Source: a virus | DNA length: 64,000 nt | Strand: one strand, 5' to 3' | IMG/VR virus record: IMGVR_UViG_3300006903_000012 | In this document: in pieces, positions 2,812 through 11,296 of the stretch | Layout of the letters: each line of letters begins with the position of its first letter | Numbering within the stretch: position 1 is the first letter of the stretch | Translations under genes and position numbers: made by a program | The notes under the pieces: model-generated | What the model was told of the DNA's origin: nothing | What the model saw: the letters and a program-made list of their open reading frames with translations, nothing else | The model's database searches: none

Positions 2812-3078
2812 TTATCCTGATTTCTTTACCGGTGAGCCAAATTGACCAGCCCACACGGGAACTATTTTACCCGACAAGATGTCTTCTTCTTTCGCAAATA
2901 ATGGAATCTCTACTTGGGTTCCGTTACAGCCACAACCCTGCTTAGTCATAATTTTCAACATCGCATCGACATCCCGTTCTTCAACTAAACACCACGGATT
3001 AAAATTATAAATTGTAAACGATGGTCCTTGTACCGATCGTTGCTGAACCGGAACAACTCCTAATTTGACCACACTCAA
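2812..3078 (-). CDS. hypothetical protein
   Basis: 88-aa ORF. The track start is TTG. A GTG at 3072 lies 6 nt after AGGAG and is the more likely start. Confidence 0.5.
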   Translation of the reverse strand: MSVVKLGVVPVQQRSVQGPSFTIYNFNPWCLVEERDVDAMLKIMTKQGCGCNGTQVEIPLFAKEEDILSGKIVPVWAGQFGSPVKKSG

Positions 3079-3081
3079 CTC

Positions 3082-3426
3082 CTACTCACCTAATTTCTCT
3101 TTTGTTTCTTCCACCAGTTCACGGACTGTCATCCAACGATTATTTCTGCCAGCAATTGCAAGTTCGATATTCTCAACACGACAAATTGCATCCATCAATA
3201 CCGGAGATATAGAATCAATTGGACCTGAAACAAAGGCTCCAGTACAAGTAATTTTTTTATCATGCAATCGCTTACAGATACAACTTGGACACAGTAATCC
3301 GCTATCATCACCATTTGTAGAAATTTGTTTCCAAGCCCAATATGGAATTATAAGATCAGGAAATCCATGTTCGGCTCCATATTGCCGATTACAATCTTCA
3401 CAACTCGCAGTTTTAATTTCGTCCAT
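3082..3426 (-). CDS. hypothetical Cys-rich (probable zinc-binding) protein
   Basis: 114-aa ORF with ATG start. Contains CEDC...CPSCIC...C motifs. Confidence 0.55.
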   Translation of the reverse strand: MDEIKTASCEDCNRQYGAEHGFPDLIIPYWAWKQISTNGDDSGLLCPSCICKRLHDKKITCTGAFVSGPIDSISPVLMDAICRVENIELAIAGRNNRWMTVRELVEETKEKLGE

Positions 3427-3642
3427 ATACTTTCTCCAGAAGTTTTGTCTTGGTGATTTTGGCTGGTTAAACGAACACCCATTCTCCTGAGGTCTACCAC
3501 ATCACGGGATATTTTATATCTAAAACTGGATGTATCCGATCACCATCCATCGGACATTTCTCAAAGTGAAAGGATAAAAGTCTTTGAGCGTCTTTTCGAC
3601 TTATTAGTCACATTTAGCAGAACAATAAGTAAAGATAGTTAA

Positions 3643-3909
3643 CTAGTTACCGCTACTAACTTCACCTGCTGGCTTTGGATACATATGATAATCCGCCACC
3701 GTCTTACCCTGTTCATTCATTACATACACATGCCCAGAATCAATGATTCTAAAATGGTGTTCTTTACCTTCATAGAAGAAATAATGAACAGCACCAGGCA
3801 TTTTACTATCACTAATTGAAACATTATCTGAAGCATAAGTCTCAACCAATGTCACATCAGGAATAACATATTCTGAATTATCGTGCCGAATAACTTTTAC
3901 TGAAAACAT
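3643..3909 (-). CDS. hypothetical protein
   Basis: 88-aa ORF with ATG preceded by AAAGGAG (plus strand ctcctttat at 3919-3927). It is the first RBS-preceded gene after the capsid locus. Confidence 0.6.
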   Translation of the reverse strand: MFSVKVIRHDNSEYVIPDVTLVETYASDNVSISDSKMPGAVHYFFYEGKEHHFRIIDSGHVYVMNEQGKTVADYHMYPKPAGEVSSGN

Positions 3910-4663
3910 ATTTTCTGCTCCTTTATCTGAATAAAAATATTTCTGTTAAATGCTTCTAATATCACCGGCGGTCCGCAATAGAAAGAAACCCCAATCTCGT
4001 AAGGTTAAGAAGAACTATCGCGTAGCCTTACCCTTCCAGTTTATTTTCGTAACCCATAGTTCCTAGCATCCTACCCGGATAGATCACAGTTACCTGTGCC
4101 CCTATCAATGGCAGTTATAGGATCGAGTTTTTCAACCAGAACAGATTGGCAGCTGACCAGACTGATCTAGCTCATGCTATTGGGTCCTGTCCATGAGCTA
4201 CGGCTGAATTGTTTATCTAAATACTATCTGGGTGTCTTACACCTTGCGGAATATTTATTCGGTATATTGTTCCCTCGATCTTAATCGAGTTTTGCTAGAG
4301 AACCATCGTCCCAGTTACATTCACAATGTTTATCGGCTCTCACCAGGAAGGCTTGTCTTATTGGCTTGCTGTCCAGATGCTTCTTGCATCGCCATCGCAG
4401 GCGACATCTGGGACTTGTCAATTCAAGTTCTGACTCTGGGCCGGCCATTATTCCGCTCACCTTGCTAGTCTGTCTTCGTTATTAATCTCGTTTCAAGATT
4501 TCATAACTTACTCGGTTGCGCGCCGAGACCAGACCGCAGATAGTAATGTTATTTAGTTGTTATTACTTAATTCCCAATTATCGAACATCCCGTTCCCAGG
4601 CGACCAGTGAAGCGGGAGGTATATGCGGCTTGCGCACACATATGCTTCACAACCAACGCAGTT
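3910..4663 (-). ncRNA. unresolved structured non-coding region, probably further group I intron material plus the last capsid exon(s)
   Basis: No ORF on the minus strand. Minus-strand RNA has an R-like CAGACUAGCA (plus 4466-4478) and a complementary S-like AUCAGUCUGG (plus 4155-4170). There is a long hairpin GUGAAGCAUAUGUG..GCAA..CGCAUAU..GCUUCAC (plus about 4600-4650). There is also a P1/P2-like block CCUAU..AUAGGGGCACAGGUAACUGUG (plus 4085-4125) resembling the 5' end of the intron at 10533-11021. Confidence 0.4.
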
Positions 4664-5795
4664 CATTTCTTGTTATCACAAAGGCTCTTTATCCTTTGTT
4701 TCTATATGTCACCATATAGTTCAGACTATATCTTCACCCAAAAACAAGGATGGCCCGCTCTCGTGGAAGAATTATTGTCCAAAATAAGGACTCACTTCTA
4801 GTCGTTACACCTTCAAGCAGTTTTCACTGCGAGCTTGGCTCGGTATTGCCTTATAAAGGTTTTCACCGACTTCACGGGCTTTATACGCGGCAGCTGCGAT
4901 GATCTTTTAAACCCTCTGTATCTCGGATCAAATTTTGCATGAATTTTTGAATGACAGCTCATGCAGACAGTAACAAGATTTTCTTTTGAATGATTATCTT
5001 TACCAAAATCAATATGATGAACCCTAAGAAGCTTCTTGGATGAACAAAGAACGCACTTATAACCATCTCGTTCTTTAATTCGTTTCTGAACCTTACCATT
5101 CCAACCAGGAGCATAGCCAACCAAAGAACCGTGCCCGTGTCGAAACCAGTGGTGTTTCTTTCCTCGATGAACATTCGGACTAGCTCGTAAAAGTTCCGAA
5201 TGTGCCTCCCTTTCTTTTGGATCATCAAACCTATTTGGTCTATACTTACAGACACACGACTTACAAAATTTAGCAGTTCTAGATTTTATCTGTTTTCCGC
5301 AATCTTTACAGAACCTTGGTTTTACAAGTTTCTTTTGCCTGCCAAATGATCTAGCATATTTAGCAAATTCAGAACCGTGAGGGAGTTGGTCTCCTGCTAA
5401 ATATTTTCTATAACAAGGCCGGCAATAACCAGTTTTTGATTTTCCGTAAGGCGGATTACTTTTATTCAGCTTAGTTTTACAAACCTTACACCTAGGACGA
5501 ATCTTTTCTTTACAGACAGGACAAAGATAAGCCCGTGGGTTTATCTTTCGATGCTTGCATCTAGGACATACTTTTTTGTAATTGTGCGCCATTCCGGCAT
5601 CCTTTGTTACTATCAAAACAGAGATAAAAACATCTACTGTATTATATCATATTCTACCGCGTAAACTTCAAAAGATATTGCCGTACACCCGGGCATCAAG
5701 TCCTTGAAACTGAGCGGGGTCTGTGTTGATTTGTAAACCAGCGGTTCACCGTTGTGGAACACACGCAACGGATAAACCGTCGAACTAAACGTCTT
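4664..5795 (-). mobile_element. composite group I intron region: decayed intron copy, HNH endonuclease ORF and an intact ribozyme core
   Basis: The intact core has R tagtcgttacac at 4799-4810 and S gttcagactatatc at 4719-4739. P4-P5-P4' (gcttggctcggtattgcc..ttcaccgacttcacgggc, 4832-4878) lies inside the 3' end of the HNH ORF. The 3' end is GAUAACAAGAAAUG at 4664. Upstream, 5598-5790 is homologous to the P2-P8 region of the sibling introns (gcggttcaccg at about 5740, and a 3'-end motif GAUAGUAACAAAGGAUG at 5598), but its P7 strands no longer pair. The 5' boundary is uncertain. Confidence 0.5.
4813..5592 (-). CDS. intron-encoded HNH homing endonuclease with multiple CxxC zinc knuckles
   Basis: ATG at 5592 after AAAGGA (the track start 5616 is TTG). 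The C-terminus LRVHHIDFGKDNHSKENLVTVCMSCHSKIH is an HNH motif. The stop codon abuts the R element. Confidence 0.75.
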   Translation of the reverse strand: MAHNYKKVCPRCKHRKINPRAYLCPVCKEKIRPRCKVCKTKLNKSNPPYGKSKTGYCRPCYRKYLAGDQLPHGSEFAKYARSFGRQKKLVKPRFCKDCGKQIKSRTAKFCKSCVCKYRPNRFDDPKEREAHSELLRASPNVHRGKKHHWFRHGHGSLVGYAPGWNGKVQKRIKERDGYKCVLCSSKKLLRVHHIDFGKDNHSKENLVTVCMSCHSKIHAKFDPRYRGFKRSSQLPRIKPVKSVKTFIRQYRAKLAVKTA

Positions 5796-11021: not shown

Positions 11022-11296
11022 AGGATCACCGGATCCGTCGCCTTTGTCACCAACCCGCCATCCAACCCTTTGGATTTCAAAATATGCTCTGTCATAGACT
11101 TCACGAGCAACGGATCAGCTTCGAAACCCTGGGCATTCAAATTCTTCAAAACTTGTTTCGTAATTTCGTCAGCGCCGTATGGATCATTCAGATTCACACC
11201 AGCGCTTTTTGCAAACAGACGAGCCGCATCATTGGCCGACATACCAGCCACCGGCAACACTTGCGGCACCGTCAACATATTATCAAAAGCATCCAT
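11022..11296 (-). CDS. major capsid protein, exon 1
   Basis: ATG at 11296, 20 nt after the scaffold gene stop. MDAFDNMLTVPQVLPVAGMS...GLVTKATDPVI. The track ORF stop at 11015 falls inside the P1 loop of the first intron. Confidence 0.6.

Follow-up and report, generated by a model that had tools for sequence, protein, structure and literature searches.

The 64,000-nt window analysed here represents the minus strand of its source, a virus record of 111,877 bp that is complete and has direct terminal repeats. The major capsid gene lies on the minus strand of the window and runs from about 11296 down into the interval under study (4663–3910). The gene is split by group I introns; Rfam detected four in the window with scores above threshold and, within the gene, several weaker ones. 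It is complete, with nine exons and its end at 4567, and the interval consists of two things, namely the last coding piece of this intron-split gene and then an untranslated spacer of 657 bases (Table 1). Relatives were gathered with exon 5873–5656 (exon 8) as the query, which gave 103 loci (23 from IMG/VR and 80 from metagenomes). The nearest of them, L024, is 88% identical over the query exon, and its capsid gene (L024:2236–3588) encodes 450 aa without any intron, providing a clean template for all splice junctions of the gene in the window.

Table 1. Features in and next to the studied interval, in window coordinates
Feature	Position	Strand	Size	Remarks
Last group I intron of the capsid gene	4664..5655	minus	992 nt	RF00028 match, splice-site pairing, intron-free L024
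Exon 9, complete last capsid exon	4570..4663	minus	94 bases	last base of a Val codon, then 31 codons
'Long hairpin' of the initial annotation	4607..4650	minus		wholly inside exon 9
Capsid stop codon UAA	4567..4569	minus		position shared with the stop of L024 and other relatives
Spacer part 1, lineage-specific, untranslated	4181..4566	minus	386 nt	several 5-bp hairpins, R/S-like 6-mer, 55-codon ORF
Spacer part 2, conserved block	4035..4180	minus	146 nt	homologous to all 153 nt that lie between the capsid gene and the following gene in L024
Predicted three-tier hairpin	4071..4114	minus	roughly 44 nt	two-sequence covariation, window and L024
Outer stem	4114-4110 / 4075-4071	minus	5 bp	CUGCC/GGUAG in the window; AGGCG/CGUCU in L024
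Invariant AUUGAUA	4109-4103	minus		unpaired
Middle stem	4102-4100 / 4083-4081	minus	3 bp	weak
Inner stem	4098-4094 / 4089-4085	minus	5 bp	CACAG/CUGUG in the window; GCGAC/GUCGU in L024
GUAA loop	4093-4090	minus		
Invariant AUCUA	4084-4080	minus		unpaired
Spacer part 3, leader of the next gene	3910..4034	minus	125 nt	Shine-Dalgarno AAGGAG 3923-3918
Next gene, 88-aa accessory protein	3643..3909	minus		own ribosome-binding site

The last intron shows the features expected of group I. Its ribozyme core scored 58.9 bits with the Rfam model RF00028 (4702–4940; threshold 50), the guide GCCGCGUA (4891–4884) forms P1 with the end of the 5′ exon, UACGCGGU (5663–5656), including the terminal U–G pair, the omega-G is G4664, and P10 is formed by CGCAG (4898–4894), immediately 5′ of the guide, and CUGCG (4661–4657) of the 3′ exon. 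An HNH endonuclease is encoded within it (ORF 4813–5616, with Pfam and PHROGs matches), whose frame opens 40 nt into the intron and extends across the guide region (4898–4884) as far as the ribozyme core, so that the 5′ splice site and its pairing partner, the guide, lie about 770 nt apart. L024 lacks the intron, and its DNA aligns to the window over 5870–5656 and then directly over 4662–4574. When U5656 is joined to A4663, the spliced C-terminus reads ...FEVYAVTALVVKHMCAQAAYTSRFTGRLGTGCSIIGN, compared with ...FEVYAVTALVIKHMCAQSAYTARFTGRLGTGCTIIGG in L024, with five differences in the last 38 positions. The window frame 4662–4570 is TALVVKHMCAQAAYTSRFTGRLGTGCSIIGN, followed by the stop; 26 of the 30 residues over 4662–4573 are identical to L024, and about 70 relatives match over 4662–4570 by tblastn. 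The consensus end of the relatives' uninterrupted capsid proteins is ...GCTAISFE[VI]WAKTAL[IV][IV]K..CA...GR....C..IG, then stop, and all 22 IMG/VR relatives share the same ending. These comparisons show that 4663–4570 is the complete last capsid exon, released by the HNH-bearing intron that ends at G4664; measured against the capsid family across the 103 related loci, the translation of the exon continues the C-terminus of the homologues and ends where they do.

Because no capsid sequence is missing, neither micro-exons nor further introns are needed to complete the protein. The initial annotation had supposed that the remaining C-terminus was hidden in very short exons, which is refuted by a contiguous tail that matches L024, and hidden micro-exons were ruled out on this ground. 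One of the two frames that it had drawn past the intron (TALVVKHMCAQ...) is not a fragment; it is the whole last exon, and its stop is located exactly where all homologues end. The arrangement imagined there is found in the relative L025, whose capsid gene has two introns in its final 100 nt and a last micro-exon of 30 nt encoding TGCTIVNNT; the phage of the window does not have it. Group I intron sites in the final 100 nt of the relatives' capsid genes lie after the Lys-His codons (L025 and L026) and after Gly-Arg-Leu-Gly (L025), the stretches concerned being L025:700–1230 and, in L026, which has one such intron, L026:265–560. As for the long hairpin in exon 9, its fold (z = −1.18) is not unusual, the same 20 codons in 84 relatives have a median fold z of −0.10 and hence no folding tendency, and the counterpart in L024 would pair in a different register. 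We regard this hairpin as probably a side effect of the codons for His-Met-Cys-Ala...Ala-Tyr.

The DNA past the stop codon was compared with the same position in the relatives. A small conserved gene with a GCGCNG motif is present 14 to about 160 nt past the capsid gene in L024, L025, L027 and L028, and is followed there by a homologue of window 2512–1973 and then by a glycosyltransferase. In the window the GCGCNG gene is located at 3078–2812. Window 4566–3079, about 1.49 kb, is therefore extra DNA, and the comparison of gene order shows about 1.5 kb that is absent from close relatives. Besides the spacer, this DNA contains two genes, the 88-aa orphan and a 114-aa zinc-ribbon accessory gene, with a gap of 216 nt between them. 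The 88-aa protein matches only itself among 5.8 billion proteins and has a weak match to phrog_3909 (E = 4.5e-6); because this match is full-length (positions 1–61 of the 64 of the profile), the ORF is a complete gene rather than an exon. The 114-aa gene, which is cysteine-rich and zinc-ribbon-like (window 3082–3426, minus strand), has relatives of 59–71% identity on five unrelated high-G+C viral contigs (L104–L108), where they occur in unlike neighbourhoods and without the spacer or a similar flank; it behaves as a mobile accessory gene. No flanking repeats of an insertion were found around the spacer. The median gap 3′ of the capsid gene is about 90 nt in the IMG/VR relatives. In one distant relative, an ORF-free, A+T-rich gap of 520 nt is present after the capsid gene and its terminator (L007:6304–6822), and an Rfam search of this gap returned noise only.

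One part of the spacer can be traced in a relative. An nhmmer search of the spacer against 108 loci (1.4 Mb) returned two weak matches, of which the best, and the only one in the expected position, pairs spacer positions 416–540 with L024 3622–3744 (E = 0.49); the second, in L023 (E = 4.3), was treated as noise. Smith-Waterman alignment, evaluated against 1000 dinucleotide shuffles of the L024 gap, gave z = 5.1 and 6.2 (p ≤ 0.001), with window 4180–4035 aligned to almost all 153 nt of the gap. RNAalifold on this block, with two sequences, gave 26 pairs, 10 of them kept through two-sided changes, and the column-shuffle control for the whole block was z = −5.2. For the 50-nt core the consensus fold of the two sequences reached z = −8.0, with none of 500 column shuffles as good. 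In the three-tier hairpin, 7 of the 13 pairs differ on both sides between the window and L024 yet are still paired; in L024 the core ends about 40 nt upstream of the ribosome-binding site of the GCGCNG gene. The two sequences thus indicate that 4180–4035 is the only ancestral part of the spacer and that it carries a predicted hairpin kept through compensatory changes.

The remainder of the spacer is without known kin. For 4566–4181 (386 nt) no similarity was found in the 108 related loci, the phage database or the phage's own genome, and 3910–4034 has no homologue in the related loci and no fold signal (z = +0.3 to 0.0). No homologue of the spacer was found in the phage database or, by exact motif, in IMG/VR, and no paralogue in its own genome. 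A model of the hairpin, R2, found copies only in the window and L024 when the window and 100 loci were searched, and a degenerate pattern scan of IMG/VR for the hairpin returned one chance match, inside an ORF and without a paired stem; motif matches in L109 and L072 were likewise discarded, lying within ORFs and lacking a paired stem. The 108 loci yielded no third copy of the hairpin. A sigma-70 promoter was considered for the block (TTGATA, 17 nt, TATCTA in L024) and rejected because its −10 element is poor and is not kept in the window, and because the compensatory stem changes argue for RNA structure. Comparative folding with relatives, as had been proposed in the initial annotation, revealed covariation over 4180–4035; no homologue was found for the rest of the spacer. 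The block 4085–4125, to which the same annotation had drawn attention for its likeness to the P1-P2-P3 start of an intron, is indeed special as the only spacer part conserved in a relative, but that likeness is not above chance.

The spacer was also searched for introns and other known RNAs. All 4227 models of Rfam 15, run with lax filters at E ≤ 10 on 821 nt, gave no match to a ribozyme or intron; thus the minus-strand search suggested earlier detected no group I, group II or other ribozyme at E ≤ 10, and the sole match was to the unstructured HOTAIR_2 model by chance (22 bits against a threshold of 60). ARAGORN reported no tRNA or tmRNA in the spacer. A profile HMM built from the phage's four best introns detects its other capsid introns at E of 6e-8 to 0.09, compared with E = 71 for its best match in the spacer. 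Covariance model R1, the trimmed core of the phage's own introns, finds all other capsid introns (E of 6e-6 to 0.09) and scored 7.7 and 6.8 bits in the spacer (E = 3.4 and 5.4), which is like noise in coding DNA. Smith-Waterman alignment of the spacer with 11 intron segments under four scoring schemes was no better than with shuffled sequence, the best uncorrected p being about 0.05. No group I core (P3-P8, P4-P6, R/S) was recognised in 4566–3910, and there are no flanking exons to join, as the capsid gene is complete at 4567 and the next gene is whole. The one or two introns of a third type that had been suggested for this region are hence not supported, all four approaches (Rfam, HMM, R1 and Smith-Waterman) giving noise. 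The observations behind the suggestion were accurate in themselves: the listed helices all exist, at or near where they had been placed, and the R/S-like pair is present as a 6-nt complement, CAGACU (4472–4467) with AGUCUG (4163–4158). In an intron-rich genome, R/S-like strings and short hairpins easily mimic ribozyme parts, and the models that find every real intron, including the weak ones, find nothing in the spacer. Further searching here for micro-exons or a third intron type is not warranted, and this loose end of the annotation is closed.

An origin of the spacer from decayed mobile elements was also considered, in which one or two group I introns, a free-standing homing endonuclease gene, or both, would have died, been stranded past the capsid gene and now be drifting. 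Circumstances in its favour are a capsid gene crowded with introns, relatives (L025 and L026) with introns at two other sites in the last 100 nt of the gene, free-standing HNH genes directly 3′ of the capsid gene in L010, L014, L016 and L017, and a base composition of the spacer which equals that of ribozyme parts, although it is also close to that of ordinary genes. Moreover, by eye and with MAFFT, 4110–3985 aligns with the intron at 11031 through AGGGGCA, a 5-bp hairpin, GAUCUAUCC, and then R-like and S-like strings. However, decayed introns received no statistical support (HMM, E = 71; R1, E = 3–5; nothing in Rfam; Smith-Waterman, p about 0.05), model R2 of the conserved block does not match the intron at 11031, and the translated spacer resembles neither the HNH genes of the relatives nor any of their other genes. 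In addition, the part with the greatest likeness to an intron start is kept with compensatory changes in L024, where it abuts the start of a gene, and such conservation points to selection and not to decay. We consider decay an unlikely account of the spacer as a whole. A third-type or decayed intron was rejected on the Rfam results (at gathering thresholds and at E ≤ 10) together with those of the HMM, R1 and Smith-Waterman, and the MAFFT look-alike of 4110–3985 was dropped after failing the HMM, R1 and Smith-Waterman tests and model R2. A 19-nt repeat between exon 9 and 4405–4387, considered as a fossil of a duplicated exon, was also set aside, about five such repeats being expected by chance from a binomial estimate. 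The free-standing HNH genes are L010:2314–3165, L014:6357–7112, L016:6301–7476 and L017:6352–7140, and their proteins are 33–44% identical to the HNH protein of the last intron in the window (4813–5616).

The structure of the spacer as a whole is modest. Folding of the entire region gave a z of −2.09 for the minus strand and of −1.15 for the plus strand, and 150-nt windows mostly gave −0.5 to −1, reaching −1.7 to −2.4 only around 4000–4300, compared with −2.3 to −3.9 for real intron cores in windows of this length. Perfect hairpins of at least 5 bp numbered 14, against 6.4 ± 2.4 in shuffles (p about 0.005), a count which is reached by 7% of windows of this sequence. The description of the region as highly structured thus receives weak support. 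Nowhere in the 64-kb window are short perfect hairpins more numerous than in segment 3286–3942 (18 against 8 expected, z = 3.6), which is mostly coding and covers the 88-aa gene and the 216-nt gap 3642–3427.

These statistics bear on the idea that the 657 nt, entirely or for the most part, form a novel structured non-coding RNA or belong to an undescribed ribozyme class. It would account for the short-hairpin excess across the spacer, for a minus strand that folds slightly better than the plus strand, for several stems capped by tetraloops, and for the structure which two sequences indicate to be conserved in one block. Against it, a homologue exists for just 146 of the 657 nt, the same position is occupied by 153 nt in the closest relative and by 15–160 nt in other relatives, and local fold z values are near zero outside 4000–4300. 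The even larger hairpin excess of the neighbouring segment 3286–3942 shows, moreover, that such an excess is not specific to the spacer. A large RNA of this kind is very unlikely. An unrelated structured RNA had been the fallback in the initial annotation, and this was right in so far as a predicted hairpin with compensatory changes is present, but the element is of roughly 44 nt and is not an RNA of 750 nt.

Coding capacity was lacking in the spacer. The 657 nt contain 74 stop codons (73.5 ± 6.6 in shuffles), the longest open frame, of 86 codons, is within chance, and translation of the spacer showed no similarity to 11,671 ORFs of relatives. Recoding of a stop codon was rejected, as no single reassignment opens a frame. 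By frame length, homology and codon usage, 4566–3910 does not look like a protein-coding gene, and the claim that the region is free of ORFs is thus correct for 4566–3910 but wrong for 4663–4570, the coding exon 9. That a small protein is encoded by the 55-codon ORF 4448–4284 is highly improbable, for although the ORF has four cysteines, a plausible ribosome-binding site (AAGGUGA) 8 nt upstream and a codon score higher than typical out-of-frame sequence, that score (0.04) falls short of the 5th percentile for true coding chunks (0.13) and is no higher or lower than in an antisense ORF, chance alone would give an open frame as long as this, and the ORF has no homologue among 5.8 billion proteins, no database entry even from its own contigs and no match in Pfam or PHROG. 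For the likeness of its CxCN motif to the GCGCNG family, hhalign gave a probability of 0.5%, which is not significant, and the idea that it is a diverged copy of the neighbouring GCGCNG gene was rejected, there being no relation to the small-gene family. The 55-codon ORF is probably not a gene.

What normally stands after the capsid gene in this group of phages was examined in the relatives. For the 100 nt past the capsid stop, 64 non-redundant relatives had a mean fold z of −4.1, 89% of them being below −2, compared with −0.5 for coding controls (Wilcoxon p = 1e-11). These hairpins are long, and a terminator-like site with a U tail was found in 33 of 66 cases; the U-tailed hairpins are intrinsic terminators. 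Across L001–L103, with 100–150 nt examined, nearly all loci have a strong hairpin after the capsid stop, the window and L024 being exceptions. By the same scan, no intrinsic terminator (a G+C-rich hairpin followed by a U tract) was found in the spacer or in the L024 gap, and a further search found none on the minus strand over 3000–4800, where no convincing promoter was seen either. The spacer 4566–3910 accordingly lacks a Rho-independent terminator, and the window and L024, both without a terminator, share the three-tier hairpin instead.

Taken together, the locus is largely an ordinary terminal exon and a spacer, plus one small conserved RNA element. The reading that we consider probable for the whole is a complete exon 9 followed by an untranslated spacer which carries an ancestral hairpin with a putative role at the RNA level. 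The spacer 4566–3910 would then be an untranslated part of the late capsid transcript, and the hairpin may stand in for what most relatives have past the capsid gene, a strong hairpin or an intrinsic terminator. Judging from its position alone, it would act on the RNA, through protection of the 3′ end, processing or attenuation, and could in this way set the amount of capsid message relative to that of the downstream genes. The hairpin has no U tract and is not a standard terminator. The invariant unpaired bases AUUGAUA and AUCUA would equally suit a protein-binding site. The other 511 nt, in which no homologue, model match or coding signal was found, are most simply explained as filler, probably brought by the inserted DNA and without sequence-specific function; possibly they are worn-down mobile elements. 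If these 511 nt were pure filler, the spacer-wide excess of hairpins (p about 0.005) would be left unexplained. A more specific proposal, which we put forward tentatively and hold to be rather improbable, is that the hairpin 4114–4071 is an undescribed, sequence-specific regulatory RNA, a protein-binding operator or processing site that replaces the terminator in a small clade of intron-rich uncultured phages and controls the downstream island of sugar genes. Joint action of the hairpin-rich 657 nt as a larger RNA is less likely still. If more members turn up, the hairpin could be a small new cis-regulatory motif.

Comparison with known systems places the parts of the locus differently. Exon 9 resembles the 3′ exons of phage genes split by group I introns, such as T4 td and nrdB, in that an omega-G precedes it, P10 is readable and the spliced product corresponds to an intron-free homologue; relative to these and other intron-bearing phage structural genes, exon 9 itself is ordinary, and what is unusual is the presence of eight introns in one capsid gene. 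Short strings in the spacer recall group I introns (RF00028), some of them the R and S elements and others the P1-P2-P3 start seen in the intron at 11031, but the spacer has neither a core that any model detects nor exons that could be joined, and the resemblance does not exceed chance. Terminators or stabilising 3′ hairpins are known to follow phage major capsid genes, an example being T-phi after gene 10 of T7. The predicted three-tier hairpin shares with these the position after the most highly expressed late gene, here within the ancestral part of the gap. It differs in having no U tract, 13 bp arranged in three tiers and invariant bases in its internal loop, in lying 450 nt past the stop instead of 20–60 nt, and in failing the terminator pattern. 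Irregular hairpins in phages also serve as RNase III processing sites, as in the R sites of T7, and as translational operators, as in T4 regA and gp32. The predicted hairpin has no sequence relation to any curated family, but in form it is like these R sites and operators: it is intergenic and irregular, has an internal loop and compensated stems, and some of its unpaired bases are conserved.
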